DNA of 64,000 bases from Pyrinomonadaceae bacterium (GCA_035249365.1 DATFGP010000022.1:192013-256012), one strand, 5' to 3'; positions 21,518-60,520 are shown, counted from the first letter of the stretch. Notes: generated from the sequence alone by a model not told the origin. Numbers and translations: made by a program.

Positions 21518-21628
21518 GCGCGTTGAGCAAAGACGTGGTGAGTTAAGGCGACTTGCGGCCACGTAAAATAAACAGCTAAACAGCACGGCTCTCCAAGAGA
21601 GCATCTCCAACTTCAAGACGCTTTTTTG

Positions 21629-21756: not shown

Positions 21757-23652
21757 ATGGAAAACTTTCGAGACCTTTTGGCGAGCGATCAGATCACGGT
21801 GTTTGACGGCGCGATGGGCACGATGCTCTACGCGAAGGGCGTCTACATCAATCGCTCCTACGACGAGTTGAATTTGACGAATCCCGATCTCGTGCGCGAG
21901 GTGCATCAGGAATACGTGCGCGCGGGCGCGGACGTGATCGAGACGAACACCTTCGGCGCGACCGCACACAACTTGCAGCAGTACGGGTTGGAAGCGAACC
22001 TGCGCAAGATCAACATCATCGCCGCGCAACTCGCACGCGAGGCCGCCTGCGAGCGTTGCCACGTCGCAGGCGCAATCGGCCCTCTCGGACTCCGCATAGA
22101 GCCTTACGGCCCCACCTCTTTCGACGAAGCGAAGGAGATGTTCAAGGAACAAGTCTCCGCGCTCCTCGAAGGCGGCGTTGATCTCTTCATACTCGAAACC
22201 TTCTCCGACATCTCAGAGATACGTCAGGCGCTCCGCGCCGTGCGCGAACTGTGCGACCTGCCCGTCGTCGCGCAGATGACTATACTGTCGGACGGCAACA
22301 CCTCTTACGGCACGACGCCCGAAGTCTTCACCACGCGCCTCGACGAATGGGGCGCGGACGTGATCGGCCTCAACTGCGGCGTCGGCCCTGCCGACGTGCT
22401 GACGGCCATCGAGAAGATGCGCGCCGTGACGGACAAGAAATTGTCCGCACAACCGAACGCAGGACTTCCGCGCGACGTTCAGGGGCGGCAGTTCTACATG
22501 TGCTCGCCCGAATACATGGCGAAGTACGCGAAGCGTCTCATACAGGCGGGCGTGAAAGTCATCGGCGGCTGCTGCGGCACGACGCCCGCGCACATCAAAC
22601 TCATTTCCGACGCCGTGCGCGCCGCCTCGCCGCGTAAGCAACGCGCCGTGATGAAACCGTCGCAGCCGGTGCGCATCGAAGAGTTGCAGCCTGCCGATAT
22701 TCAAGTCGTGCCGATGGAGGAGCGTTCCAACTGGGCGCGTCGCATCTCGCGCGGCGAGTTCGTCACGACCGTCGAAGTGCTGCCGCCGAAAGGTTGCGAC
22801 GCCGCGAAGACGCTCGATCAAATTCGCCTGCTCAAAACCGCTGGCGTCAACGCCGTCAACATCCCCGACGGCCCGCGCGCGCAGACGCGCATGAGCGCAC
22901 AGGCCACAGCCCTTTTAGTCGAACGCGAAATCGGACTCGAAGCCGTGCTTCACTATTGTTGCCGCGACCGCAATCTGCTCGGCATGATGTCCGATCTTTT
23001 GGGCGCGGCGGCGCTCGGCCTGCGCAATTTGCTGCTCATCACAGGCGACCCGCCGAAGATGGGGCCGTACCCCGATGCCACAGCCGTCTTCGACATCGAC
23101 TCCATCGGCCTGACCAACATGGTCAACAAACTCAATCACGGCCTCGACCTCGGCAACAACCCCATCGGTTGCCCGACATCGTTCTGCATCGGCGTCGGCG
23201 TCAACCCCGGCGCGATCAATCTGGAAGAAGAGATCAAACGTTTCGAGTACAAGGTCGAGGCGGGCGCGGAGTACGCCATCACGCAACCCGTCTTCGACGT
23301 GGGGCAACTGCGCGACTTCCTCAAACTCATCGAGCACGTACGCATCCCCGTCATCGCAGGAATCTGGCCGCTCGTCTCCTTCCGAAACGCGGAGTTCCTG
23401 CACAACGAAGTGCCGGGCGTGCGCGTCACGCCCTCGATCATGGAGCGCATGCGCCGTGCATCCGACATCGGCAAAGAGGCGGCGCGCGACGAGGGCTTGC
23501 AGATCGCGCGCGAATCCCTGCTCGAAGTGCGCGACCTGATTCAAGGCGTCCAAGTCTCCGCCCCGTTCAACAACGTGCGTTACGCGCTCGAAGTCTTCGA
23601 GGCTTTGCCCGAGTTCAGCGCACAACGCGAAGCAACAAGAGTCGCCGGTTAA
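21757..23652 (+). CDS. Bifunctional homocysteine S-methyltransferase / 5,10-methylenetetrahydrofolate reductase (YitJ-like)
   Basis: The N-terminal Hcy-binding domain (GAMGTML, NTFGAT, GLNCG, GGCCGTTP) is followed directly by an MTHFR-like TIM barrel. There are no pterin-binding or B12 domains. Confidence 0.85.
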   Translation: MENFRDLLASDQITVFDGAMGTMLYAKGVYINRSYDELNLTNPDLVREVHQEYVRAGADVIETNTFGATAHNLQQYGLEANLRKINIIAAQLAREAACERCHVAGAIGPLGLRIEPYGPTSFDEAKEMFKEQVSALLEGGVDLFILETFSDISEIRQALRAVRELCDLPVVAQMTILSDGNTSYGTTPEVFTTRLDEWGADVIGLNCGVGPADVLTAIEKMRAVTDKKLSAQPNAGLPRDVQGRQFYMCSPEYMAKYAKRLIQAGVKVIGGCCGTTPAHIKLISDAVRAASPRKQRAVMKPSQPVRIEELQPADIQVVPMEERSNWARRISRGEFVTTVEVLPPKGCDAAKTLDQIRLLKTAGVNAVNIPDGPRAQTRMSAQATALLVEREIGLEAVLHYCCRDRNLLGMMSDLLGAAALGLRNLLLITGDPPKMGPYPDATAVFDIDSIGLTNMVNKLNHGLDLGNNPIGCPTSFCIGVGVNPGAINLEEEIKRFEYKVEAGAEYAITQPVFDVGQLRDFLKLIEHVRIPVIAGIWPLVSFRNAEFLHNEVPGVRVTPSIMERMRRASDIGKEAARDEGLQIARESLLEVRDLIQGVQVSAPFNNVRYALEVFEALPEFSAQREATRVAG

Positions 23653-35493: not shown

Positions 35494-35973
35494 GTGCGTA
35501 ATTTCGACCTGAAAGATTACTTGCCGATCCTGCTCATGTTCCTCGTCGCAGGGGGATTTGCGGGCGGCAACATACTGCTCTCTCAACTCGTCGGGCAGCG
35601 TAAGCAGACGCGCACGAAGTTGATGCCCTACGAGTGTGGCAAAGACCCTGTGGGTTCTGCGCGCGAACGCTTCTCGGTTAAGTTCTACTTGATCGCGATG
35701 ATCTTCATACTCTTCGACATCGAGTTGATCTTCCTGATGCCATGGGCGGTGGTCTTCAAATCGCTCGCGGCGCAAGGCGCGGCGATGCGCAATTTGATCT
35801 TCGTAGAGATGATGCTGTTCGTCGTGCTGCTGCTCGTGGGCTACGTCTACGTGTTGAAGAAGGGTCTGTTTGATTGGAACGAGCGGGCGCGGACTGAGGC
35901 GATAGGCGAAGCGCACGCGCTGGCTTTGAAGGAAGCGCGCAGGGCTGACGTGGAGCATCGCGCCGCAGCCTGA
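35494..35973 (+). CDS. nuoA: NADH-quinone oxidoreductase subunit A (extended C-terminus)
   Basis: Three TM helices and the conserved YECG motif. Has about 40 extra C-terminal residues. Confidence 0.9.
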   Translation: MRNFDLKDYLPILLMFLVAGGFAGGNILLSQLVGQRKQTRTKLMPYECGKDPVGSARERFSVKFYLIAMIFILFDIELIFLMPWAVVFKSLAAQGAAMRNLIFVEMMLFVVLLLVGYVYVLKKGLFDWNERARTEAIGEAHALALKEARRADVEHRAAA

Positions 35974-36005
35974 CCAATGTCTAAGCCCACGCGGGAGTTT
36001 TAATT

Positions 36006-36656
36006 ATGGGTCTCGAAAATAAGATCGCGGAAGCACTGCCGGAAGTGTTGACGACGACGCTCGACTCAATCGTCAACTGGGCGCGCAAGTCCAGCCTGTG
36101 GCCTGCGACTTTCGGCCTCGCCTGCTGCGCCATCGAAATGATGAACGCGACGAGCGCACGAAACGATCTGGCGCGCTTCGGCTCGGAAGTGTTTCGTGCA
36201 AGCCCGCGTCAGGCCGACGTGATGATCGTCTCAGGCCGCGTCTCGCGCAAGATGGCTCCCGTGCTGCGTCGCATCTACGACCAGATGCCCGAACCGAAGT
36301 GGGTTATCTCTATGGGCGCGTGCGCGACGTCGGGAGGCGTGTTCGACAACTACGCCATCGTGCAGGGCGTGGACAAGATCGTGCCGGTTGACGTGTACAT
36401 TCCGGGCTGCCCGCCGCGCCCTGAAATGCTCATCAACGCCGTGATGATGTTGCAGGACAAGGTGATGAAAGAATCTCTGCGCGACCGCCGCGACATTCCC
36501 GCCGCAGATGCGCGCGAAGCCGTCCCGCCGGGCACGCTGCCGGGCTCCGGCGTCTCCGCGCTCAACGAAGCGGCGGCGCAAAACGCAGACGAGAAGGCAA
36601 ACGTCTCGCGTCCATACACGATTCCCTCGCGGCACGAACGCCGAAGGTCTTCATAA
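36006..36656 (+). CDS. nuoB: NADH-quinone oxidoreductase subunit B
   Basis: CCAIEMM ... GCPPRPE N2-cluster motifs. Confidence 0.95.
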
Positions 36657-36660
36657 AAGC

Positions 36661-36760
36661 TGTCCGTTGTCAGTGGTCAGTTGTCCGTTGTTTATGTGAA
36701 ACGAGCAAGTGACTAAAGATTAGAGCGAACAACTGACAACGGACGACGGACAACGGACAA
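36661..36760. repeat. Foldback element R2 (GTCCGTT/GTCAGTT type), ending at the nuoC ATG
   Basis: TGTCCGTTGTCAGTGGTCAGTTGTCCGTTG ... CAACTGACAACGGACGACGGACAACGGACAA, immediately followed by ATG. Confidence 0.85.
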
Positions 36761-37306
36761 ATGAGCAAAGATATTGAGCGCGAACAGGCGATAGCCGAGC
36801 AAGCGGCGGGTGAGCCGTTGAAGGATCAGGCGGGCGCGGGGTTGATCGCCGCGCTGCAAGGGTCGCACGCAGACGCTGTTGTTGAGGTGATTCAGGCGTT
36901 CGGCGAGATCACGATTGTTGTGCCGCGCGAGCGCATCGTCGAGTTGTGCGAGTATTTGAAGACGACGCCGGAGTTCGAGTTCAACATGCTGGCAGACATC
37001 TGCGGCGTGGATCGTGGGCCGGAGGAAGACCCGCGATTTGAAGTCAACTATCATCTTTTTTCTACGACCAAATTCCATCGCTTACGACTCAAAGTTGTCG
37101 TCAGCGAAGAAGACGCGCGCGTGCCGACCGTGACGGGCGTGTGGCGCACGGCCAACTGGCACGAGCGCGAAACTTTCGATCTATTCGGCGTGCGTTTCGA
37201 CGGCCATCCCGATTTGCGTCGCATACTCCTGCCCGACGATTGGCAGGGGCACGCGCTCCGCAAAGACTTCCCGCTGCGCGGCTACGAGCCGTACAGCCTT
37301 AGCTAA
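36761..37306 (+). CDS. nuoC: NADH-quinone oxidoreductase subunit C
   Basis: 30-kDa subunit family. Separate from nuoD. Confidence 0.9.
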   Translation: MSKDIEREQAIAEQAAGEPLKDQAGAGLIAALQGSHADAVVEVIQAFGEITIVVPRERIVELCEYLKTTPEFEFNMLADICGVDRGPEEDPRFEVNYHLFSTTKFHRLRLKVVVSEEDARVPTVTGVWRTANWHERETFDLFGVRFDGHPDLRRILLPDDWQGHALRKDFPLRGYEPYSLS

Positions 37307-37415
37307 GTGACAAGTGACAAGTGACGAGTGACAAGTTAAAGACAAAAACAGTCTTCGCTCGCCACATGTCTTTATCTTATCTTGTCTCGTCACTTGTCAC
37401 CTATCACTCGTCACT
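37306..37415. repeat. Foldback element R4 (GTGACAA type) between nuoC and nuoD
   Basis: AAGTGACAAGTGACAAGTGACGAGTGACAAG ... CTTGTCTCGTCACTTGTCACCTATCACTCGTCACTG. Confidence 0.85.
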
Positions 37416-37423
37416 GATTACTT

Positions 37424-38635
37424 ATGGTCGCAAATCTTCCGCCGCAGTTCGAGGTTGTTGACCAACCGCTCGACACGCAGATGACGATCTCGATGGGGCC
37501 GCAGCACCCTTCGACGCACGGCGTCCTGCGTCTCGAACTCGTCCTCGACGGCGAGATGGTCATCAAATGCACGCCCGACATCGGCTATCTCCACACGGGG
37601 ATGGAGAAGCTGTTCGAGTACAAGAAATACCAGCAAGGCATCGTCATCACAGACCGTATGGATTACCTGAATCCGCTCGGCAACAATCTTTGTTATGTGA
37701 TGGCGGTGGAGAAATTGCTCGGCCTCGAAATACCGGAACGCGCGCAGGTGATTCGCGTCTTGATGTGCGAGTTGCAGCGCATCGCCTCGCACATGGTCTG
37801 GTTGGGGACGCACGCGCTCGACATCGGCGCAATGAGCGTTTTCTTCTACGCCTTCCGCGAGCGCGAGAAGATTTTGAACTTGATCGAAGCCGCGTCGGGC
37901 GGTCGCCTGACGCCGTCCTACTTCCGCATCGGCGGTTTGATGATGGACTTGCCTGCGGGTTTCGAGAGTCGCGTCAAGCAGTTCATAGACAAGTTTCCGA
38001 AGGCGGTTGACGAGTTCGAGACGCTGCTTTCGGGCAACCGGATTTTCCAGTCGCGCACGAAGGGCATCGGCATCATCACTGCCGAAGACGCGATTGACAT
38101 GGGCGTCACGGGGCCGTGCCTGCGCGGGAGCGGCGTCGCCGTTGACGTGCGGCGTACGAATCCTTACACGGGCTACGAGACTTACGATTTCGACGTTCCG
38201 GTCGAACAGAGTTGCGATGTGTGGGGGCGCTACCTTGTACGTATGCGCGAACTGCGCGAGTCTCTGAAGATCGCGCGGCAGGCTCTCGGTCGTTTGAAGC
38301 CGGGGCCGGTCAAGGCCGACGCGCCGAAAGTTGTCTTGCCGGATCGCGAGGCGATGAAGACGCACATGGATGCGCTCATACACCACTTTTTGATCGTGGC
38401 CGAAGGCTTCAACGTTCCGGCGGGCGAAATTTATCACCCGATTGAAGGCTCGAAGGGCGAACTCGGCTGCTACGTGAAATCGGACGGCGGCCCGAAGCCC
38501 GCGCGCGTACACTTTCGCGGCCCCTCGTTCGTCAACCTCTCCGCCCTGCCGCACATGTCGGAAGGCGAGATGGTCGCAGACGTGGTCGCCATCATCGGCT
38601 CACTCGACATCGTGCTCGGCGAAATAGACAGGTAA
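37424..38635 (+). CDS. nuoD: NADH-quinone oxidoreductase subunit D
   Basis: 49-kDa subunit (GPQHPSTHGVLRL...). Confidence 0.95.
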   Translation: MVANLPPQFEVVDQPLDTQMTISMGPQHPSTHGVLRLELVLDGEMVIKCTPDIGYLHTGMEKLFEYKKYQQGIVITDRMDYLNPLGNNLCYVMAVEKLLGLEIPERAQVIRVLMCELQRIASHMVWLGTHALDIGAMSVFFYAFREREKILNLIEAASGGRLTPSYFRIGGLMMDLPAGFESRVKQFIDKFPKAVDEFETLLSGNRIFQSRTKGIGIITAEDAIDMGVTGPCLRGSGVAVDVRRTNPYTGYETYDFDVPVEQSCDVWGRYLVRMRELRESLKIARQALGRLKPGPVKADAPKVVLPDREAMKTHMDALIHHFLIVAEGFNVPAGEIYHPIEGSKGELGCYVKSDGGPKPARVHFRGPSFVNLSALPHMSEGEMVADVVAIIGSLDIVLGEIDR

Positions 38636-38640
38636 AACGT

Positions 38641-38732
38641 CCGTTGTCAGTAGTCAGTCGTCCGTTGCATGTGACAACCGCACAAGTTGCTAAAGATTTG
38701 GATTGAACAACTGACAATGGACTACGGACAGT
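38641..38732. repeat. Foldback element R2 between nuoD and nuoE
   Basis: GTCCGTTGTCAGTAGTCAGTCGTCCGTTG ... CAACTGACAATGGACTACGGACAG. Confidence 0.85.
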
Positions 38733-38738
38733 TTCTTT

Positions 38739-39299
38739 ATGAGTAAACAGTTCACGCCCAACAATCCTTTGCCGCAGGAAGCGCCCGTGCCTGATGAGGT
38801 CGCGAAGTTTTCGGCGGCGGTCGAGGCGGAGATTGACGCGCATCTAGCGAAGTATCCGGTGAAGCGTTCGGCGATCTTGCCGATCATGTTCGTCGTGCAG
38901 CGCGAGCGCGGCGGCTATCTGGACAAGCCGGGTGTGGCATATCTCGCGGATCGTCTGGGCGTGCGCGTCACGGACATCTGGGAAGTGGCGACCTTCTACT
39001 CGATGATCAACACAGAGCCGGTCGGCAAGTATCACTTGCAAGTTTGCCGCACGCTCTCGTGCAAGATTTTAGGCGCGGACAAGATCACAGAGCAGTGCGC
39101 GAGCCGTCTCGGCATCAAGCCGGGCGAGACGAGCGCGGACGGGCAGTTCTCGCTCTCCGAAGTGGAGTGCCTCGGCTCTTGCGGCACAGCCCCTATGTTG
39201 CAGATCGGTTTCGACTACTACGAAAACCTGACGCCGGAGAAGGTTGACGAACTCATAGAGAAGTGTCGCAACAATCAACTCCCGAACGGCGTCCGCTGA
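38739..39299 (+). CDS. nuoE: NADH-quinone oxidoreductase subunit E
   Basis: 24-kDa subunit with Cx4C...CxxxC 2Fe-2S motifs. Confidence 0.9.
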   Translation: MSKQFTPNNPLPQEAPVPDEVAKFSAAVEAEIDAHLAKYPVKRSAILPIMFVVQRERGGYLDKPGVAYLADRLGVRVTDIWEVATFYSMINTEPVGKYHLQVCRTLSCKILGADKITEQCASRLGIKPGETSADGQFSLSEVECLGSCGTAPMLQIGFDYYENLTPEKVDELIEKCRNNQLPNGVR

Positions 39300-39371
39300 A
39301 ATTTACAGAAGTTTTGCCGGTCGCAAGTTACGGAGTTTAACTAGATCAAGTTTTCGTCTCCTGTAAAGAAT

Positions 39372-40697
39372 ATGTTTATCGGTGCAATCGGTTGCGAACC
39401 GCTACAACTCGCCCGCGTCAGTTTAGAGCGTTCGCAGTCGCTCGAAACTTATCAGCGGCACGGTGGCTACGAGGCGCTGCGCAAAGTGCTGAATGGTATG
39501 TCGCCTGACGATGTGATCGCGGAGATGAAGAAGTCTGCGTTGCGCGGTCGCGGCGGCGCGGGTTTTCCGACGGGCATGAAGTGGAGTTTCGTGCCGAAGC
39601 TGAAGCAGGGCGAGACGCGGGAATCGCACCCGCGTTACGTCGTCTGCAACGCAGACGAGTCTGAGCCGGGCACTTTTAAGGATCGCTACATCATGGAGCG
39701 CGATCCGCACATGCTCATCGAAGGCATGTTGATTGCCGCCTACGCGCTCGACTCGAAGGCCACTTACATCTACACGCGCGGCGAGTATCGCTACCTGATC
39801 GAGATCATGGATCGCGCGATCGAAGAAGCACGCGCCGCCGGTTTGGTCGGCGATAAGATTTTGAAAACAGACTTCTCGTGCGAGGTCTACACGCACACGG
39901 GCGCGGGCGCGTACATCTGCGGCGAAGAGACGGCGCTCCTTAATTCACTCGAAGGCTTGCGCGGACACCCGCGCATGAAGCCGCCCTTCCCCGCAGTCGC
40001 AGGTCTCTATGGTTGCCCGACGGTCGTGAACAACGTCGAGACGCTGACCGCCGTGCCCGACATCATCAAGATGGGCGGCGAGGCTTACCAGAAGTTGGGG
40101 ACGGAAAAAAGCGGCGGCACGAAACTCTGGTCTGTCTCAGGCCACGTGAACCGACCCGGCGTGTACGAACTCCCGATGGGCTACTCCGACATGGAAAAGT
40201 TCATCATGGAAGACTGTCAGGGCATCTCGAACGGGCGCAAGCTCAAGGCCGTGATTCCGGGCGGGTCGAGCGTCTACATCATGCCCGCGTCCGACATCGA
40301 AGGCAAGAAAGTTACGATGGATTACGAGGGTCTGGTCGCCGCCGGTTCGTCGGTCGGCTCGGGCGGCTTCATCGTGATGGACGACACGGTTGACATCTTC
40401 GAATCGACGAAGAACCTGACGGAGTTTTACAAGCACGAATCCTGCGGCTGGTGTACGCCCTGCCGCGAAGGCACGGACTGGCTCGTCAAAGTTTTCAAAC
40501 GCATCGCGCGCGGCGAAGGCAAAGCCGACGACGCGCAACTTCTACTGGACTTGTGCGACAACATCGAGGGCAAATCCTTTTGCCCGCTCGGCGACGCCGC
40601 CTCCTGGCCGATCCAGTCGGCCATCAAGAAGTTTCCCGAAGACTTCAAGAAGCACCTTTCGTCACTGATACAAGTGAAGGGGGCACCGGGGAGTTGA
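39372..40697 (+). CDS. nuoF: NADH-quinone oxidoreductase subunit F
   Basis: 51-kDa subunit. GRGGAGFPTG FMN site, CGESEPG..., and a C-terminal 4Fe-4S motif. Confidence 0.95.
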   Translation: MFIGAIGCEPLQLARVSLERSQSLETYQRHGGYEALRKVLNGMSPDDVIAEMKKSALRGRGGAGFPTGMKWSFVPKLKQGETRESHPRYVVCNADESEPGTFKDRYIMERDPHMLIEGMLIAAYALDSKATYIYTRGEYRYLIEIMDRAIEEARAAGLVGDKILKTDFSCEVYTHTGAGAYICGEETALLNSLEGLRGHPRMKPPFPAVAGLYGCPTVVNNVETLTAVPDIIKMGGEAYQKLGTEKSGGTKLWSVSGHVNRPGVYELPMGYSDMEKFIMEDCQGISNGRKLKAVIPGGSSVYIMPASDIEGKKVTMDYEGLVAAGSSVGSGGFIVMDDTVDIFESTKNLTEFYKHESCGWCTPCREGTDWLVKVFKRIARGEGKADDAQLLLDLCDNIEGKSFCPLGDAASWPIQSAIKKFPEDFKKHLSSLIQVKGAPGS

Positions 40698-40722
40698 ACT
40701 TCATAAGCGAGGTAGTCTTATT

Positions 40723-41253
40723 GTGAGAACCATAAGTGAAGAGATCATCCATGAAGGAAAACATTTCAAGGTGATTCACGAGACTGTTGAGATTGAAGGG
40801 AAAATTAGGGTATGGGAATATGTTAAACGCAAAGACGGGACGCGGACAATAGCAATTGATCAAAACAATAATATTCTTTTAACAAGAGAATACCGGCATG
40901 AGTTGCGAGCTGAAGATTGGCGCTTGCCCGGCGGCAGATTGGATGATGAGAGTGAGCCGATAGCAGAAGCTGCTAAAAGGGAGTTTCGAGAAGAAACCGG
41001 CTTTATCGCCGACAAGTGGGAATATCTATGGTCAACCACGCCGGAATCAACGGTTAGATATTTCAGGCATTTTTTTTTGGCGACCGAACTTAAGCAAGGA
41101 CAGAGCGAACCTGAAGAGGGGACAAAGATCACTGTTCACTGGATACCACTTCCTCAAGCATATGAGATGGCACTGCGCGGCGATATTAAAGAAGAGATTG
41201 CCGCGCTTGCGATTATCAGGTTCTTTCATAAAGCTGAAATGAGAGGAAGGTAA
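40723..41253 (+). CDS. NUDIX hydrolase (ADP-ribose pyrophosphatase-like) in AT-rich island
   Basis: Nudix box GGRLDDESEPIAEAAKREFREETG. Local GC is much lower than in the flanking nuo genes. Confidence 0.8.
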   Translation: MRTISEEIIHEGKHFKVIHETVEIEGKIRVWEYVKRKDGTRTIAIDQNNNILLTREYRHELRAEDWRLPGGRLDDESEPIAEAAKREFREETGFIADKWEYLWSTTPESTVRYFRHFFLATELKQGQSEPEEGTKITVHWIPLPQAYEMALRGDIKEEIAALAIIRFFHKAEMRGR

Positions 41254-41369
41254 TATCTGAATTCTTCAACTTTGATAAAGTATGTTGAGTCTGAAAGTTT
41301 TTTGGTAAACGCATTGGATTTTGGCTAAGGCGCCGCGATCTAATAATTTATATTTTTGGCCTTTGCCTG

Positions 41370-42386
41370 TTGCAATCGTTCTTCTTCACATGTCAAGGAC
41401 ACATAGCGATGCAACCACCGTCGAACTTGAATAACAATAAGCCGGGTAAAGATAATGAATCGTTATTAAAGAAAGTCCTCAGATTACTCGGCATTCTAGG
41501 CTTGGGCGTTTTAGGTAGTTGGCTGGCTGGTAAAATTCCAACCTCAGACCACTTGCCTAATTTGCAGCGGTTTCAGATGGCTATTCCTTGGATATTGGCT
41601 ATCTTTTTCTTTATAACAACGTCGCTCTTGTATTTGAAATCGCGCGGGCATAAAGAGCTGGAAGGCAGAAAGAACGCACTGGAAAGCAGAAAAACCGAAT
41701 TAGATGCGGAATGCAAACGCTTACAAGAAGATTACTCGTCATTAGAGATCGAAGTCAAAAGATTACAGGAGGAGAACTTAAAGCTTCAAATCGAACTGCC
41801 ACGGGAGTGGGTAGGCATTCAGGAGCGGACTGGACTTCAAGGTTACGATCCTGACTTGAGTGATAGCCCGTTTCATCCTGAAAGGTGCTTGCCGACAATC
41901 GGTAAGAGTTTAAGTTTTATGGGTCACGGCGCAAGCAAATGGACGGCGCATGTCCCACCGCTGGAAGATATGCTTGAAAGAATCCGGGGTGAAAGAAACA
42001 AGAATAACTCAAAGGCAGTAGTAAAATTTCTTATTCTTAATCCGGCTCACGAAAAGAATACAAAACAACAGCGCCGCAGAATTGCAGTCAGTTTGATGAA
42101 TCTCAAATTTTTGCAGAATGAATTTCCGGAAGTGTTAATGATAAGGGTTTTCAATCACCTCCCACAGTTCAGATTAATTTTTATTGATGGTAAAAAACTC
42201 GTTGTTGGACATTACGGGGGCGAACAAAGAAAAGAGAGCGACAATACTCCTTTGCATGTTTATAGTATCGAAGGTGAATGGAGTTTCTTTCATCCTTTCG
42301 AGGAACATTTCAATACTGAATGGGCTGCCGCCAAGGTTCCAGAGTGGACGGAAATCGACACCATTGCAAACCAACCGGTCAACTGA
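41370..42386 (+). CDS. Hypothetical membrane protein with coiled-coil and an uncharacterised C-terminal domain (AT-rich island)
   Basis: Two TM segments, then a heptad-rich region (ELEGRKNALESRKTELDAECKRLQEDYSSLEIEVKRLQEENLKLQ), then an about 170-aa C-terminal domain. No family recognised. Confidence 0.55.
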   Translation: MQSFFFTCQGHIAMQPPSNLNNNKPGKDNESLLKKVLRLLGILGLGVLGSWLAGKIPTSDHLPNLQRFQMAIPWILAIFFFITTSLLYLKSRGHKELEGRKNALESRKTELDAECKRLQEDYSSLEIEVKRLQEENLKLQIELPREWVGIQERTGLQGYDPDLSDSPFHPERCLPTIGKSLSFMGHGASKWTAHVPPLEDMLERIRGERNKNNSKAVVKFLILNPAHEKNTKQQRRRIAVSLMNLKFLQNEFPEVLMIRVFNHLPQFRLIFIDGKKLVVGHYGGEQRKESDNTPLHVYSIEGEWSFFHPFEEHFNTEWAAAKVPEWTEIDTIANQPVN

Positions 42387-42409
42387 CAAGAAGACAGTGA
42401 GAAATCATT

Positions 42410-43465
42410 ATGAGTTCCAAGACAAGATTTCTTGATCTAGCCATGCACGGCGGATGCTCGAAGAAGGTTGGCGGCAAGGATTTACAAAGACTGCTTTCCA
42501 ATTTAGCTGACTCCGAAACGGATCACCAATTTTCTGAAATTAAAGGCTGGCTGGATTTTGGCCTTTATGAGCGTAAAGATGAGGCTCTAATAAGTAATGT
42601 TGATATTGTTCTGCCGATGGTTCCTAATCCTGCCGACTTCGGGGAAATTGTTGTTGCACATGTCTTGAGCGACATTTACACATCTGGAGCAAAGCCGCTT
42701 TTCGGGCTTAACATCCTCGGCGTTCAACAAACCATTGATTTAAGCAGTAACGGCAATGACATAAAGTTAATGCTGGCATCTGCTGCTAAAAAGCTACACA
42801 GCGCAGGAGCGCAACTCGTCGGCGGGCACTCGATTGGAAATCAATCTGACCTTTATTACGGTCTAGCAGTGTTCGGGATAATTAACAAAGATTCGTTAGT
42901 AACGAACAAAGGGGCCAAAACAGGTGATGCTTTAGTCCTAACAAAACCGCTTGGAACCAGCATCGCCTCAAAACTATGGAAGAGTAATCATCACCTTGAG
43001 AACGATTTCCAAGATGTGTTAACAGGTATGAAGCAACTCAATGACATAGCAGCAGAAGAAATGCTTAAAGGCCAAGCTCACGCTTGTACTGACATCACAG
43101 GTTTTGGCTTGCTCGGCCATACACATAATCTGCTTCGTGCGAGTGAGGCAGCTTGCGTCATCAACGTCGAGAACTTGCCCATTTATGATTCGGTGCAAGA
43201 CTTCGGCGGAGCTGAGTATCAAACGATGATTTTCGATAAGAATAAAGAATACGTCGTTGACTACGTAAATGACGATGATGTAGAGCTAACTTCATTGCTT
43301 GATGTTGTTATTTATGATGCTCAGGTTTCCGGCGGTCTACTCGTAAGTCTTACTCATGAGGAAGCTGGCAAATATGTCGAACGATTGAGAGACAGAGGAG
43401 TTACAGCATCTATTATTGGCGAGGTAGTAGAAGGTCAAGCGGGGTATATAACGCTTTTGCCATAA
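42410..43465 (+). CDS. selD: Selenide, water dikinase (selenophosphate synthetase), Cys-type, in AT-rich island
   Basis: Collinear with E. coli SelD throughout. N-terminal HGGCSKK loop corresponds to the catalytic Cys/Lys. Also PMVPNPADFGEI, GGHSIG, DITGFGLLGH. Confidence 0.8.
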   Translation: MSSKTRFLDLAMHGGCSKKVGGKDLQRLLSNLADSETDHQFSEIKGWLDFGLYERKDEALISNVDIVLPMVPNPADFGEIVVAHVLSDIYTSGAKPLFGLNILGVQQTIDLSSNGNDIKLMLASAAKKLHSAGAQLVGGHSIGNQSDLYYGLAVFGIINKDSLVTNKGAKTGDALVLTKPLGTSIASKLWKSNHHLENDFQDVLTGMKQLNDIAAEEMLKGQAHACTDITGFGLLGHTHNLLRASEAACVINVENLPIYDSVQDFGGAEYQTMIFDKNKEYVVDYVNDDDVELTSLLDVVIYDAQVSGGLLVSLTHEEAGKYVERLRDRGVTASIIGEVVEGQAGYITLLP

Positions 43466-43477
43466 ACGGATTTATAA

Positions 43478-45787
43478 ATGACTACAGAACTAATCAAAGT
43501 TACGATCAATGGCAACCTCTACGAAGTGGAGAAGGGTGCGCGCCTCATTGATGTGTGCCGCGAGCGTGGGCACGCCGTTCCCTCTTTCTGTTATTACGCA
43601 GACCTCGCGCTGCAAGCCTCTTGCCGTATGTGCCTTGTGCGCATCGAGAAGATGCCGAAGCTGCAAACGTCCTGCACGATCACCTGCACGGACGGCATGA
43701 GCGTCACGACGGAAAGCGAAGAGATCGAGAAGGCGCAGCGCGGGATGGTCGAATTTTTGCTCGCCAACCATCCGCTCGATTGTCCCGTCTGTGATCGCGG
43801 CGGCGAGTGCGAGTTGCAGGAGATGGTCTTCGACTGGGGCGGCCTCGAAGAACGCTTTCGGGAGAAGAAGAACTACTACCCCGAAAAATTCCTGTCGCCT
43901 ATCGTCGCTAACGATCCGCAGCGTTGCATTTTGTGTAAACGCTGCACGCGCGTCTGCGATGAGTGGATGGGCGAGGACGCTATCGAAGCGGGTGGGCGCG
44001 GCGCGAACACAGTCATCGGCACGTTTGACGGCTGGCTCAATTGCTCACAGTGCGGCAACTGCATCGAAGTCTGCCCGACGGGCACGCTGCTAGATGCTAC
44101 ATACCGACATCAAGCGCGGCCTTGGGAACTCTCGCAGACGATCACGACATGCAATTTTTGCTCGGACGGCTGCCAGATGTCGCTCGGTTCGCGCGCCGGA
44201 GAAGTAATGCGTTCCGTCGCGCGCGACCGTTACGTCAACGGCATCAACGGCGAGTTTCTATGCATCAAAGGCCGCTTCGCGCACCCCTTTATCAATCACG
44301 ACGAGCGCATCAAGACGCCGCTCATACGCTACAAAAAGGGCGGCAAGCTAATTCCGGCGACGTGGGACGAAGCCATACGCCACACCGCCGCGAAACTGCA
44401 AGAGATCAAAACGGCACACGGCGGCGACTCGATCGGCGTCGTCGGCAGCCCGCGCATCACGAACGAGGCAAACTACGCGCTCTTGAAGTTCGCGCGCGAA
44501 GTCGTCGGCACAGAGAACTACACCGCGACGGACGCCTTCTCGCTCGTGCCCTTCTTCGCGAATTTGAGCGCGCCGCTGGCGACGCATCGAGACATTCGCC
44601 ATGCCAAGACGATCATACTCATCGGCGGCGAGCCGGAAGAGTTGCAGCCGCTCACGGGTCGGCAGATCAGGCAGGCCGTCCGAAACGGCGGCGCAAAACT
44701 CGTCGTCGTGGGCAGCGTGCCGATTCGTTTGAAACAAGCGGCGACGCAGTTCATACACATCAATCCGGGCGCGGAAGATGCCGCCGTGCTCGCTTTCGCT
44801 GGCAGCGAATACGCGACTGCCGCGCACAAGTCGGGCGTAGAAGCGCGTGAGTTTGAAGATGCGCGGCGCATCGTAGAAGAGACGACGGGCGATGTCGTCG
44901 TCATGTTCGGCGAGTTGAGCGCGGCGGCGCAAACGGCGCTCGCAAACATTCCTTCAAATTACGGCGAGCAAACCGGCCGACGCTTTTTGTTTCACCCGCT
45001 CCCGCTCTACAACAACAGCGTCGGTGTACACGATCTCGGCTTGATGGGGGGCGCGCTCGACGCCGCAGGCATGCTCGATGCGGCGGGCACGAGGCTTCGC
45101 GCGCTTTACGTCGCGGGTAGTTTCTTGCCACGGCATCTCGCGGGGCGCGAGGACGCGCTCTCGAAGCTGGACTTCCTCGTCGTGCAGGAAATGTTCGAGA
45201 CGGAGACGACCGCGCACGCCGACGTGATCTTTCCCGCCGCGTCCTACGCGGAGACGGACGGGACGTTTACGAACAACGACGGGTTAGTGCAGCGCGTGCG
45301 CCAGTCAATTCCGCCCGTTCATCAATCGAGACCGGACTGGATGATCACTGACGCGCTCGCGCAGGGGCTAGGCGCAAACTTCGACTTCCAGTGGTCGGCC
45401 GGAAAAGTCTTCCTCGAGCTTGCGCGCAGCACGGCGGCATATGCGGGCATGAAGTTCGCGCTTTTGAAAGACGAGACGCAGCCTGTTCAAGCGAGGCACG
45501 CGGTTGCAGGTAGCGGCGCGAGCGATGCCGTGTCAGGTGCGCTGGCAAGTTTACGCGAGACGGTCGAGGCGTTGAGCTATACGGGCGAGAAGATCACGGA
45601 GACGCCGCCCGTCGGGCATGAACTGTTTAAGCCGGGGACGCTGACGGGCAAGACGCCGCAGTTCCCTCTGCTCGACGCCGGAAACCCGAAACCGCCCACA
45701 GTGCTCGTGTCGCCGCTTTATCAAATTTCCGTTGACCCCGCGCTGCGCCGCGCGACTGTGAACGCCGCAGCCGCCGCAGGAGACTAG
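43478..45787 (+). CDS. nuoG: NADH-quinone oxidoreductase subunit G
   Basis: 75-kDa subunit. N-terminal 2Fe-2S ferredoxin, and CPxC.../CxxCxxxCP clusters. Confidence 0.95.
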   Translation: MTTELIKVTINGNLYEVEKGARLIDVCRERGHAVPSFCYYADLALQASCRMCLVRIEKMPKLQTSCTITCTDGMSVTTESEEIEKAQRGMVEFLLANHPLDCPVCDRGGECELQEMVFDWGGLEERFREKKNYYPEKFLSPIVANDPQRCILCKRCTRVCDEWMGEDAIEAGGRGANTVIGTFDGWLNCSQCGNCIEVCPTGTLLDATYRHQARPWELSQTITTCNFCSDGCQMSLGSRAGEVMRSVARDRYVNGINGEFLCIKGRFAHPFINHDERIKTPLIRYKKGGKLIPATWDEAIRHTAAKLQEIKTAHGGDSIGVVGSPRITNEANYALLKFAREVVGTENYTATDAFSLVPFFANLSAPLATHRDIRHAKTIILIGGEPEELQPLTGRQIRQAVRNGGAKLVVVGSVPIRLKQAATQFIHINPGAEDAAVLAFAGSEYATAAHKSGVEAREFEDARRIVEETTGDVVVMFGELSAAAQTALANIPSNYGEQTGRRFLFHPLPLYNNSVGVHDLGLMGGALDAAGMLDAAGTRLRALYVAGSFLPRHLAGREDALSKLDFLVVQEMFETETTAHADVIFPAASYAETDGTFTNNDGLVQRVRQSIPPVHQSRPDWMITDALAQGLGANFDFQWSAGKVFLELARSTAAYAGMKFALLKDETQPVQARHAVAGSGASDAVSGALASLRETVEALSYTGEKITETPPVGHELFKPGTLTGKTPQFPLLDAGNPKPPTVLVSPLYQISVDPALRRATVNAAAAAGD

Positions 45788-45892: not shown

Positions 45893-46975
45893 ATGGACTG
45901 GAACACAATCACATACGTCGGCTTGAAAATGCTGGGCATCAACATCGCCTTCGTGGTGGTCTTGATGATCGTGGCCTATACGGTGCTGGCGGAGCGGCGC
46001 ATTCTCGCGCTGATTCAGGGGCGCTTGGGGCCAAACCGCGTCGGGCCGGGCGGGCTTCTGCAACCGTTCGCAGACCTTTTGAAGTTTATCTTCAAAGAAG
46101 AGATCGTGCCCGATAAGGCGACGAAGTTCGTCTATTTTCTCGCACCCTTCATCGCCATCGTCGGCGCGCTGATGACGATCATAGTCTACCCGTTCGGGCC
46201 GGAAGTGAACCTTCCGTTCCTCGGCACGATCAAACTCGTCGTCGCGCAGTTCGATGTAGGACTCCTGTATGTGTTGGCGATCACTTCCATAGGCGTCTAC
46301 GGTATCGCGCTTGCCGGTTGGTCTTCCAACAACAAGTACAGTCTGATGGGCGGCCTGCGCGCGGCGGCTCAACTCATCTCTTATGAGCTTTCGCTGGGGC
46401 TGGGGCTGGTCGGCGTCGTGTTGTTGTCGGGCACGCTTGACCTCTACCAGATCGTCGAGCATCAATCCGGCTATTGGTGGGTGGCGGGCGTCGTGCCAAT
46501 TCCGCGCTGGAATATTTTCCCGCAATTCATAGGCTTCGTCGTCTACCTGATCTCCGCGATTGCAGAGACGAACCGCGTGCCGTTCGACTTGCCGGAGGCG
46601 GAGACGGAACTCGTCGCGGGCTTCCACACGGAATACAGTGCCTTGAAGTTCGCGCTCTTCTTCATGGCCGAGTACGTCAACATGTTCACGGTCTCGATGC
46701 TGGCGGCCACGCTCTTCTTCGGCGGCTGGAATTTCCCCTGGCTCGATCTCCTCGTCGCACGCGGCGGGTTTCTGTTCGGGCTGTTGAGCCTCGTCGCGTT
46801 TCTCTTGAAAGTTTTGTTCTTTCTCTTTTTGTATATCTGGCTGCGCGGGACGCTGCCGCGTTTTCGCTTCGACCAGTTGATGAACTTCGGTTGGAAATTT
46901 TTGCTGCCGGTGGCGATCCTGAACGTCGTTTTGACGGCGACGGTCGTGTTCGTCTTGATGAGTTTACGACCCTAG
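45893..46975 (+). CDS. nuoH: NADH-quinone oxidoreductase subunit H
   Basis: ND1 family (LAERRILALIQGRLGPNRVGP...). Confidence 0.95.
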   Translation: MDWNTITYVGLKMLGINIAFVVVLMIVAYTVLAERRILALIQGRLGPNRVGPGGLLQPFADLLKFIFKEEIVPDKATKFVYFLAPFIAIVGALMTIIVYPFGPEVNLPFLGTIKLVVAQFDVGLLYVLAITSIGVYGIALAGWSSNNKYSLMGGLRAAAQLISYELSLGLGLVGVVLLSGTLDLYQIVEHQSGYWWVAGVVPIPRWNIFPQFIGFVVYLISAIAETNRVPFDLPEAETELVAGFHTEYSALKFALFFMAEYVNMFTVSMLAATLFFGGWNFPWLDLLVARGGFLFGLLSLVAFLLKVLFFLFLYIWLRGTLPRFRFDQLMNFGWKFLLPVAILNVVLTATVVFVLMSLRP

Positions 46976-47055
46976 CGCGCGGGGCGTGGACGCAGGCAGG
47001 CATCTTTGTAAACATCGCCTGCTGCGGTCGGCTTTCGCTCGATAGTTTTTCACTT

Positions 47056-47730
47056 ATGACGACTTTTCTCTTCGTGCTGTTGGCTGGTCTCGCGGTCGGT
47101 TCTGCCGTCGCGATGGTAGTGCAGCGCAATCCGCTCTACAGCGCGATCTCTCTGATCGGCGTCTTCATCGCGCTCGCAGGGTTGTACCTGACGCTCGCCG
47201 CGCCCTTCCTCGCTGCCATACAGATCATCGTCTACGCGGGCGCGATCATGGTGCTCGTCGTCTTCGTCATCATGCTGTTGAACGTCGAAGAAGAGGAGCG
47301 CAAACCCGTGCGGCTCGGTTATCTGACCGCCGCCGCCATCCTGCTCGCGGCGATTCTCTTCGGCGAGGCCGGATTCATACTCTATTTCATGGGGCAGTCG
47401 AGCCTCGAACCGCTCGACCCGAACGCCATCGGCGACCCCTCGAACGTCGGCCTGACCACATCCATCGGGACGGGACTTTTCACGAACTACCTGCTGCCCT
47501 TCGAGATCACGTCCGTGCTGCTCTTGATGGCGATTGTCGGCGCGTTGACGCTCGCGCGTCGCGTCGGGTTGCGACCGACCGATCTAGTGATCCCCGGCGC
47601 GCAGGTGCTGACGCGACAGACGCTCGACCCGAAAGCGATTGGCGACGCAACAGAAGTTGTGACTTCGACGACCGCAGAGGCCGAACGCGTGCTCGGACTC
47701 GAAGGCGCGCGGCACAGGCGCGAACAGTAG
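47056..47730 (+). CDS. nuoJ: NADH-quinone oxidoreductase subunit J (extended C-terminus)
   Basis: ND6 family N-terminus MTTFLFVLLAGLAVGSAVAMVV. Follows nuoH directly, with no nuoI between them. Confidence 0.85.
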   Translation: MTTFLFVLLAGLAVGSAVAMVVQRNPLYSAISLIGVFIALAGLYLTLAAPFLAAIQIIVYAGAIMVLVVFVIMLLNVEEEERKPVRLGYLTAAAILLAAILFGEAGFILYFMGQSSLEPLDPNAIGDPSNVGLTTSIGTGLFTNYLLPFEITSVLLLMAIVGALTLARRVGLRPTDLVIPGAQVLTRQTLDPKAIGDATEVVTSTTAEAERVLGLEGARHRREQ

Positions 47731-47745
47731 AGGGGAAAAGTGTCT

Positions 47746-48054
47746 ATGCCCGGTGTATCTCTTTCATGGTATCTCGCGCTCTCGGCGGTGTTGTTCACCA
47801 TCGGCGTGGCGGGCGTCATCATCAAGCGCAACGCCATCGCCATGTTCATGTGCATCGAGTTGATGTTGAACGCCGTCAATTTAACCTTCGTCGCCTTCTC
47901 AAGTTACTTCCGAGATGCTAGCGGCCAACTCTTCGTCTTCATCGTGATGACGGTGGCGGCGGCTGAAGCGGCGGTCGGACTCGGCATCATCCTCGCCGTC
48001 TTTCGCAACCGCGAATCGCTCGACGTGGACGATTCCAGCGTGTTGAGGAACTGA
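47746..48054 (+). CDS. nuoK: NADH-quinone oxidoreductase subunit K
   Basis: ND4L family. Confidence 0.9.
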
Positions 48055-48058
48055 AGAT

Positions 48059-48179
48059 TGTCCGTTGTCAGTAGTCAGTTGTCCGTTGCTTGTGGTTACG
48101 ACACAAGTTGCTGAAGATTGAGTAGATCAACTGACAATGAACAAAGAACAACTGACAACGGACTACTGACAACGGACAG
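48059..48179. repeat. Foldback element R2 between nuoK and nuoL
   Basis: TGTCCGTTGTCAGTAGTCAGTTGTCCGTTG ... CAACTGACAACGGACTACTGACAACGGACAG, with 5 nt to the nuoL ATG. Confidence 0.85.
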
Positions 48180-48184
48180 CCCTT

Positions 48185-50599
<2,415 letters not shown>

Positions 50600-59950: not shown

Positions 59951-60520
59951 ATGCTCAACATAATGACGCTTGACATATGGCTAAAGATTATCTCGACGTT
60001 CTTCACCGCCGTCATAGGTGTAGCAGCTTGGCTTATAGCTTATCAACAACTCAGGCTTAACAAAACGCTTTCTTCACAACAAATCAGACTTGCTTCCGAG
60101 CAACTCAGACTTAGCGAGGCTAAGTTAAAGTTTGACTTGTACGAACGGCGTCTAAAACTATTTGAGATAGTTAAAGAATTCAATGGTGGCTTCGCTATGA
60201 GTGGGAAAGCCGACACAGGCAAGTTTTATCACGATACAATTGAACGGCACTTTTTGTTTGATGACGATGTATCCGCTTATATTGGTGAGGTGTATCAAAG
60301 GGCGCTTAAGGCAAAGCGTACTATACTAAAACTCGACAGCCCAAATCTCACCGAAGCTGATAGAGAAACACTTAATGCACAACATGTAGCACAGATGCAG
60401 TGGTTCTACGATCAGGCGGAAAATGCACCTAAGGTCTTTTCTAAAGATTTATCTATCAATACTCTTAAACAGTCTGGTTTGTTGCCTGTGAAATCCTCAT
60501 ACCCTCAGCTTTCAAACTGA
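59951..60520 (+). CDS. Hypothetical protein with N-terminal TM helix, in an AT-rich islet
   Basis: 189 aa with low GC. No family recognised. Confidence 0.45.
   Translation: MLNIMTLDIWLKIISTFFTAVIGVAAWLIAYQQLRLNKTLSSQQIRLASEQLRLSEAKLKFDLYERRLKLFEIVKEFNGGFAMSGKADTGKFYHDTIERHFLFDDDVSAYIGEVYQRALKAKRTILKLDSPNLTEADRETLNAQHVAQMQWFYDQAENAPKVFSKDLSINTLKQSGLLPVKSSYPQLSN

Follow-up and report, generated by a model that had tools for sequence, protein, structure and literature searches.

We analysed a 64-kb stretch of DNA (one strand; hereafter the window) from a Pyrinomonadaceae (Acidobacteriota) metagenome-assembled genome (locus tag prefix VJ842_), in which three AT-rich genes interrupt the complex I operon between nuoF and nuoG. 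They encode a NUDIX hydrolase, a membrane protein without family assignment (here called protein X) and a SelD-family selenide, water dikinase. The comparative and structural data suggest that this cassette is an abortive-infection-type conflict module composed of a dikinase, a receptor-effector with a phospholipase D (PLD) fold and a hydrolase, most likely directed against phages, and we give this interpretation a probability of about 0.6. It draws, among other things, on the conserved C-terminal domain of X, which is found behind exchangeable killing domains known from bacterial immune systems, and on the recurrence of the three genes as a unit in unrelated genomic contexts.

Protein X matches no family in Pfam, NCBIfam or PADLOC, and a profile search against PDB sequences detected no significant similarity. 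It is predicted to contain two transmembrane (TM) helices, a coiled-coil-like linker and a 195-aa C-terminal domain (Table 1). The original prediction was correct for the NUDIX, membrane and SelD proteins; the C-terminal domain, put at about 170 aa, is longer, and the proposed long coiled coil shows only a weak leucine-zipper match and is missing from the X homologue P0002. A first AlphaFold model of the C-terminal domain, from 2 sequences, had a pLDDT (predicted local distance difference test) of 70 and weak Foldseek matches to PLD proteins, and was superseded by a confident model from 33 sequences. This model has the PLD alpha/beta fold and most closely resembles the structures of the pseudo-enzyme FAM83 and of the TrmB sugar-binding domain. 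The catalytic motif HxK(x)4D was found in none of the 33 aligned members of the X family, and the histidine near the conserved K47 varies (H/N/I/V/T). The invariant residues (G42, W48, R125, Y139, P151 and W175 in C-domain numbering, with K47 near-invariant) would suit the binding of an anionic ligand. Another non-catalytic PLD-fold domain, DUF5919 (PF19319), has no match in X of the window and matches 18 of 64 homologues (best 1.8e-07), some barely above the cut-off (27.6 vs 23.5). The TrmB sugar-binding domain, DUF1669 of FAM83 and DUF5919 are the nearest domains of this kind; X differs from them in having no sequence similarity to any solved structure and in its outputs, which are TM or enzymatic killing domains and not a DNA-binding domain.

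A word-indexed search had given one relative of X, P0002 (45% identity), and the profile of the C-terminal domain, searched against 1.84 billion cluster representatives (E<=1e-3), detected a family of 389; a second indexed search, run with the family profile, contributed little more. The X domain is C-terminal in nearly all matches listed, and a two-TM N-terminus precedes it in most of the best 150. Other members carry PRTase (P0019), TIR (P0020), PNP (P0042), patatin (P0062), DUF4062 (P0092), metallophosphoesterase (P0112, P0143) or SIR2 (P0126) domains at the N-terminus. These N-terminal domains match PADLOC effector models for the phospholipase (1.3e-70), endonuclease (9e-27) and PN-superfamily (5e-14) effectors of cyclic-oligonucleotide-based antiphage signalling systems (CBASS), the retron III-A PRTase (2e-15), LmuA/ThsA SIR2 (2e-12) and ThsB/TIR (1.6e-9); the X domain itself has no match in PADLOC (2023). 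In CBASS, Thoeris, Pycsar and type III CRISPR systems, receptor-effector proteins are built in this way, with a conserved ligand-type domain that is not catalytic placed behind interchangeable killing domains, and by its domain architecture the C-terminal domain of X appears to behave like such a receptor module. Three generic traits of defence systems are present here: effector domains are exchanged while the partner domain is conserved, the distribution is patchy, and the genes have been transferred horizontally. The fold search of BFVD with X gave generic viral PLD proteins only, and a metagenome scan with a narrower X alignment returned a single locus.

The enzymes adjoining X point in the same direction. 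We read the neighbours of X in 13 independent loci, consisting of the window, five recurrences of its cassette and further loci that were picked by the N-terminal domain, blind to the neighbouring genes (Table 1). The neighbour is SelD in nine of them (window, L002, L084, L085, L087, L092, L090, L091 and L094) and a phosphoenolpyruvate (PEP)-synthase-like "water dikinase" in three (L093, L095 and L096), and the 13th locus (L099) is truncated. The overall reaction, ATP + acceptor + H2O -> AMP + Pi + phospho-acceptor, is the same for SelD and for PEP synthase (pyruvate, water dikinase). That one can stand in for the other suggests a shared need for an ATP-dependent phosphorylated product, and not for selenium as such. 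The second branch of X-family loci, in which the dikinase takes the place of SelD, covers L093 (1880-5212), L096 (1677-5851), L095 (1897-3789) and, truncated, L099 (1512-1592). Its dikinase, about 600-630 aa long and similar to PEP synthase and rifampin phosphotransferase, is usually accompanied by an archaeal-type NMNAT-like protein and a family-II-pyrophosphatase-like DHH protein; none of the three has a PADLOC (2023) model.

The gene order NUDIX-X-SelD was detected in five other contexts (L002/3, L084, L085/86, L087-89 and L092), with the genes closely spaced or overlapping. The gene of P0002 is flanked by sequence coding for the C-terminal end of a NUDIX protein and for the N-terminal end of a SelD (L002/3), and the same order was seen in 3 of the 3 loci looked up for members of the SelD subfamily (L084, L085/86 and L087-89). 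The cassette of L084 stands between nuoF and nuoG of another Pyrinomonadaceae-like contig (NuoF 85% identical) and is the sole recurrence in the same slot, while that of L085/86 lies between a Na/Ca exchanger gene and urocanase and that of L087-89 adjoins a uvrA-like gene. In the contigs with enough flanking sequence the cassette is AT-richer than its surroundings (GC content 0.49 vs 0.57 in L084, 0.354 vs 0.485 in L085, 0.435 vs 0.512 in L087 and 0.405 vs 0.506 in L092); even in the nuo slot of L084 its genes have GC contents of 0.46-0.51 against 0.57-0.58 in the flanks. All three open reading frames (ORFs) are intact in these four loci. Across contexts the NUDIX and SelD proteins are 51-79% identical and X 37-40%; between the window and L084 the values are 75% for NUDIX, 79% for SelD and 40% for X, suggesting that X was either swapped or is evolving much faster. 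On these comparisons the cassette is a conserved, mobile unit. The original prediction had stated that the combination is not a recognised operon, which agrees with PADLOC, where the only match is a weak one to NUDIX, and with the lack of a description in the literature searched, yet it is a recurrent cassette and not a one-off arrangement. As a separate observation, a UvrA-like paralogue of about 970 aa is encoded near an X-family system in two unrelated loci (L087, 3608-6529, - strand; L096, 10215-13121, + strand), which may be coincidence.

In the window, nuoA-F (35494-40697) and the genes from nuoG onward (from 43478) are on the + strand, and the three cassette genes are co-directional with them, separated by gaps of 25 (nuoF-NUDIX), 155 (NUDIX-X), 23 (X-SelD) and 12 bp (SelD-nuoG). 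The GC content of the island (40723-43465) is 0.434, against a mean of 0.594 (standard deviation 0.020, minimum 0.538) for all other 2.7-kb segments (z = -8.1), and it changes sharply at both borders, within about 100 bp of where nuoF ends and nuoG begins. GC content at third codon positions (GC3) is 0.43, 0.45 and 0.41 in the NUDIX, X and selD genes and 0.73-0.80 in nuoA-H. Both bordering genes are full length, with residues 1-439 of 441 of NuoF aligning with 80 relatives and residues 1-769 of NuoG aligning with relatives. The AT-rich, tightly packed and co-directional island that had been described from the sequence was confirmed in all three respects.

The NuoF-based scan of relatives (one genome per species) gave 80 Pyrinomonadaceae/Blastocatellia loci (L004-L083; NuoF 82-93% identical), and NUDIX, X and SelD are encoded at 0 of these 80 nuoF loci. 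The junction itself is variable: the nuoF-nuoG distance ranges from -2 to 1644 bp and exceeds 400 bp in 30 of the 78 loci with both genes, and in other relatives the two genes nearly abut. Among the inserts are genes for HicA, HicB, DUF2442, DUF4160, aspartyl-protease-like and CarboxypepD_reg proteins and for a secreted protein of 137 aa, as well as coiled-coil ORFs about 100 aa long. In L004, whose NuoF has the top identity (93%), and in L026, nuoF is followed by a HicB/HicA pair. The nuoF-nuoG junction is thus a slot in which small accessory genes land repeatedly, and the cassette of the window is one of its cargoes. An intergenic site within the essential complex I operon can serve in Pyrinomonadaceae as a landing slot for accessory or toxin-antitoxin genes. 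Horizontal acquisition of the cassette, already suspected from its composition, is supported by the GC and GC3 contrast, the absence from the 80 related loci and the recurrence in unrelated contexts. A housekeeping role for X was rejected, as X matches no family and is absent from the 80 relatives. Neither of the observations that the original prediction had named as contrary to it was made: the one metagenomic relative with the three genes at this position (L084) has them below the GC content of its flanks, and no housekeeping family matches the middle gene.

The island contains no integrase ORF and the 64-kb window no tRNA; flanking direct repeats or att-like sites were limited to 12-18 nt repeats at chance level, and promoter-like and terminator-like sites in the island region showed no excess over shuffled sequences. 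The island does not have the integrase or transposase, direct repeats and tRNA target by which integrative mobile elements and genomic islands are recognised, and the data lend no support to an autonomous mobile element or to an insulated transcription unit. These results would fit a scenario in which recombination in the conserved flanks, nuoF and nuoG, exchanges the inserts and transcription reads through them, and the cassette is probably co-transcribed with the nuo operon.

Table 1. Features of the nuoF-nuoG slot in the window and gene content of further X-family loci
Sequence	Feature	Position	Strand	Support or remark
Window	nuoF, intact left border of the slot	39372..40697	+	Pfam Complex1_51K and NADH_4Fe-4S; GC 0.594, GC3 0.776
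Window	NUDIX hydrolase, 176 aa, GTG start, ADP-ribose/ADP-sugar pyrophosphatase-like	40723..41253	+	Pfam NUDIX 4.4e-16
Window	AT-rich spacer, 155 bp, NUDIX to X	41254..41408	.	Direct sequence reading
Window	Protein X, 325 aa, putative membrane effector with receptor domain	41409..42386	+	Gene call and start the same in public records P0001 and L001
Window	Two predicted TM helices of X, residues 23-41 and 55-73, putative effector part	41475..41627	+	Kyte-Doolittle windows >= 1.6
Window	Coiled-coil-like linker of X (inferred), residues ~81-130	41649..41798	+	Heptad-rich; weak HALZ leucine-zipper match, 0.0069
Window	C-terminal domain of X, 195 aa, non-catalytic PLD fold, distantly DUF5919-like, putative ligand receptor	41799..42383	+	Structural model
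Window	SelD-family selenide, water dikinase, 351 aa, HGGCS[KR]K subfamily, putative small-molecule generator	42410..43465	+	TIGR00476
Window	nuoG, intact right border of the slot	43478..45787	+	Pfam Fer2_4, NADH-G_4Fe-4S_3 and Molybdopterin; GC 0.612
L090	TIR-X, canonical SelD (437 bits), family-II-pyrophosphatase-like DHH			Adjoins integrase, IS1595 transposase, HTH-M78 and TIR-pentapeptide genes
L091	PRTase-X, SelD			Contig end follows
L093	Patatin-X, DHH, NMNAT-like adenylyltransferase, PEP-synthase-like dikinase			
L094	SIR2-X, SelD			No adjoining hydrolase
L095	PNP-X, PEP-synthase-like dikinase			
L096	NMNAT-like, PEP-synthase-like dikinase, 430-aa protein without family, metallophosphoesterase-X			
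L099	DUF4062-X, start of NMNAT-like gene			NMNAT-like gene as in L093 and L096

The SelD of the cassette passes the cut-off of TIGR00476 (240.8 bits vs 125) and misses that of the stricter NF002098 (182 vs 299). It carries the PurM-fold Pfam domains AIRS (2e-14) and AIRS_C (2e-19), and its nearest solved relative is the Aquifex SelD 2yye (2.4e-42). Conservation of residues C16, K19, D49, D65, D88 and D228 reaches at least 95% both in the group of the window SelD with 50 close relatives and in 18 canonical sequences, in agreement with the alignment to 2yye, and the product of the cassette enzyme may be of the selenophosphate or thiophosphate type. The window SelD belongs to a subfamily of at least 54 cluster representatives (38-100% identity) that is marked by the N-terminal motif RFIDLAxHGGCS[KR]K, where canonical enzymes have GGCGCKI; all of its members with context read sit in the NUDIX-X-SelD cassette. 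Differences from canonical SelD are fixed at six positions (F7, L68, M70, H84, T183 and N240 in window numbering). H84 (window 42659-42661) replaces a canonical Asn close to the conserved metal-binding Asp88, and differences of this type could reflect altered substrate or regulation. PADLOC has no model matching SelD. The enzyme family and the catalytic Cys, Lys and Asp residues are common with the canonical SelD pathways (selenocysteine, 2-selenouridine, the Se-molybdenum cofactor and SenC of selenoneine biosynthesis), but in the contexts read the cassette SelD is flanked by NUDIX and X, and not by selA/B, selU, yqeBC or senAB.

The solved relatives nearest to the NUDIX protein are ADP-ribose (ADPR) pyrophosphatases (1mk1 at 1.8e-19, then 1v8i and NudF). 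Its Nudix box, GGRLDDESEPIAEAAKREFREETGF (G-x6-E-x7-REfREEtGf, for the consensus GX5-6EX7REUXEEXGU), is intact when aligned to the 1mk1 box. It scores below every NCBIfam equivalog cut-off (best NudE, 52.4 bits vs 169), so that it has no equivalog-level similarity to a characterised ADPR pyrophosphatase, and in PADLOC it gives one weak generic match (PDC-S07, 8.4e-07). The protein is 51-75% identical across the five other cassettes. The island NUDIX is closest to ADPR pyrophosphatases such as NudF and the Mycobacterium tuberculosis ADPRase, and NadM-Nudix fuses such a domain to the NMNAT-type enzyme; an NMNAT-like adenylyltransferase is present in the X loci of the dikinase type. The island protein differs from these enzymes by its scores below the equivalog cut-offs.

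Under the proposed mechanism, the ATP-dependent dikinase of the SelD family would make a small phosphorylated molecule, which by its chemistry may be selenophosphate, thiophosphate or a derivative. The PLD-fold domain of X would read this product and, through the coiled coil, switch the two-helix membrane part, so that membrane damage would stop the infected cell; in the relatives of X, a TIR, SIR2, patatin or similar domain would execute growth arrest or death. NUDIX (or DHH) would turn over the signal or a nucleotide by-product and set the threshold. Speculatively, the retained Cys/Lys pair of SelD points to chemistry of the selenophosphate or thiophosphate type, and the ADPR-pyrophosphatase-like NUDIX together with the NMNAT-like enzymes may hint at an adenylylated derivative.

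This proposed logic, a small-molecule-making enzyme and an effector with a putative ligand-sensing domain and swappable killing domains, is that of CBASS, whose effectors include 2-TM, patatin (CapV), endonuclease and TIR proteins; the patatin, metallophosphoesterase, PNP and TIR N-terminal domains of the X family match PADLOC CBASS effector models. Unlike CBASS, no cassette gene encodes a CD-NTase (SMODS) or another nucleotidyltransferase of that fold (Pfam, NCBIfam and PADLOC), a PLD-fold domain stands in place of the SAVED or STING receptor, and the enzyme is SelD or a PEP-synthase-like dikinase. Thoeris (the TIR protein ThsB with SIR2-SLOG ThsA, or with 2TM-Macro in type II) and Pycsar (a cyclase with a TM or TIR effector) are also abortive-infection modules of two to three genes, with a membrane or NADase effector gated by a small molecule, and the ADPR-pyrophosphatase-like NUDIX hints at ADPR-like chemistry. 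The cassette differs from both in having neither a TIR signal generator nor a cyclase, in the absence of SLOG, Macro and cNMP-binding domains, and in the effector position of the TIR and SIR2 domains of the X family.

A more specific hypothesis, which we put forward only tentatively and consider rather improbable as a whole, is that a dedicated selenophosphate synthetase provides an inorganic or nearly inorganic messenger (selenophosphate, thiophosphate or a simple adduct) to a PLD-fold receptor controlling cell-killing effectors (2-TM, TIR, SIR2, patatin, PNP, PRTase and metallophosphoesterase). Prokaryotic immune signalling would then include a new class free of nucleotide cyclases, with a parallel PEP-synthase-like branch, and at least some "orphan SelD" genes would have a role outside selenium metabolism. 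The design of a signal enzyme with a receptor-effector is already known, and the enzyme class and the receptor fold would be new in that role and to immune signalling. If the interpretation as a conflict module holds, the approximately 390 protein clusters would represent an undescribed branch of signal-based bacterial immunity, each pairing SelD or a PEP-synthase-like dikinase with a PLD-fold receptor that is fused to killing domains of CBASS, Thoeris and retrons, the "orphan SelD" question would have a testable answer, and the cassette would offer a compact three-gene system for experiments.

Several points weigh against an anti-phage module. The support is wholly comparative and structural, from the 13 loci inspected, and ligand binding by the PLD fold is proposed from the fold and the domain architecture. 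No trigger-sensing component was identified in the cassette. SelD keeps all the residues of ordinary selenophosphate synthesis and is canonical in L090 (437 bits), and it could be a housekeeping enzyme merely adjoining X. Since selenium is a trace element, a robust immune signal built on it would be surprising, and a NUDIX protein of the ADP-ribose type would not obviously act on selenophosphate. Genomic context is mixed: L090 lies beside integrase, IS1595, HTH-M78 and TIR-pentapeptide genes and the nuoF-nuoG slot of relatives holds toxin-antitoxin modules, but most cassette contexts are not classical defence islands, and L085 and L087 are in ordinary metabolic surroundings. Relatives of X were found neither on plasmids (tblastn) nor on viral contigs (scan), a phage record collection being outside the search. 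The parts other than the effectors have no support in PADLOC or the literature; our full-text literature search found no published description linking SelD, DUF5919 or PEP-synthase-like dikinases to defence or conflict systems.

The same genes could work in the opposite direction, as a toxin with a small-molecule antitoxin in an addiction or shut-off-sensing module: SelD would make a labile ligand constitutively and hold X closed, NUDIX or DHH would destroy the ligand, and a collapse of transcription or ATP, by phage shut-off or loss of the cassette, would let X kill the cell. We regard this as possible, at odds clearly below even. Fast turnover of the ligand would matter in such a module, and a pyrophosphohydrolase is indeed usual in the same operon (NUDIX in six loci, DHH in L090 and L093); it is not universal, as SIR2-X and SelD of L094 have no adjoining hydrolase. 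Placement for constitutive expression with nuo, the lack of a trigger sensor and the presence of classical toxin-antitoxin pairs (HicAB, DUF2442/DUF4160) in the slot of relatives are also in its favour, whereas in the known sensor-domain effectors of CBASS, Thoeris, Pycsar and type III CRISPR the ligand switches the effector on, and not off. The built-in hydrolase and the toxin-antitoxin-rich slot keep a ligand that restrains X in consideration, and the sequence cannot decide the polarity.

A role in selenium or sulfur utilisation, as an "orphan SelD" trait, would make X a membrane-anchored acceptor, carrier or transfer protein for the selenophosphate of SelD, with NUDIX processing a nucleotide co-substrate. 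This is the main rival that involves no conflict role. The selenium literature lists SelD genes with no known trait as unexplained (PMC5029168, PMC5322559), the cassette SelD is above its curated cut-off with the Cys/Lys pair and all Asp ligands kept, and an X-family gene also adjoins a canonical SelD (L090). We nevertheless consider this role unlikely. The fusions of the X domain to TIR, SIR2, patatin, PNP, metallophosphoesterase and PRTase domains matching curated defence effectors are hard to fit to biosynthesis, and the PEP-synthase-like dikinase in place of SelD at three loci indicates that the family does not depend on selenium. A scan of ten large window ORFs revealed no selA/B, selU, yqeBC or sen-type gene, tRNAs are absent from the window, and the X domain has no catalytic PLD motif. 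Of the two functions suggested in the original prediction, a defence-type cassette is much better supported, through the fusion of the C-terminal domain to CBASS, Thoeris and retron-type effectors, and the selenium-utilisation module is disfavoured.

X is very unlikely to be a membrane-anchored PLD-type lipid or phosphodiester enzyme (compare cardiolipin and phosphatidylserine synthases and the Nuc-like dimer) of an envelope- or phospholipid-modifying operon: a catalytic PLD enzyme was rejected for lack of the HKD motif, the only His near the conserved Lys being variable, the best fold matches are non-catalytic, and soluble TIR, SIR2 or patatin domains replace the TM helices in many family members. 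Chance juxtaposition of three unrelated, possibly decaying recent transfers without joint function would fit the lack of an integrase, flanking repeats and dedicated promoter or terminator signals, but is hardly tenable, already contradicted by a synteny that recurs in five other contexts with short spacing or overlaps and intact ORFs in complete contigs.

Three other features of the window were noted. A second low-GC patch (59951-60520, + strand; GC 0.42 vs 0.59) contains an ORF for a 189-aa protein, which has a single hydrophobic helix at the N-terminus and a stretch resembling a coiled coil. In the nuo operon, nuoJ directly follows nuoH without nuoI between them, both in the window (46975-48185) and in L084 (11472-13549), so that the NuoI subunit must be encoded elsewhere or be absent. 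A fused homocysteine S-methyltransferase/MTHFR gene (ORF 21757-23652) is preceded, at a distance of about 150 bp, by a match to the Rfam SAM_alpha riboswitch (21525-21600, + strand; 41.2 bits against a gathering score of 36), a family that takes its name from Alphaproteobacteria and is seen here in an acidobacterial host.

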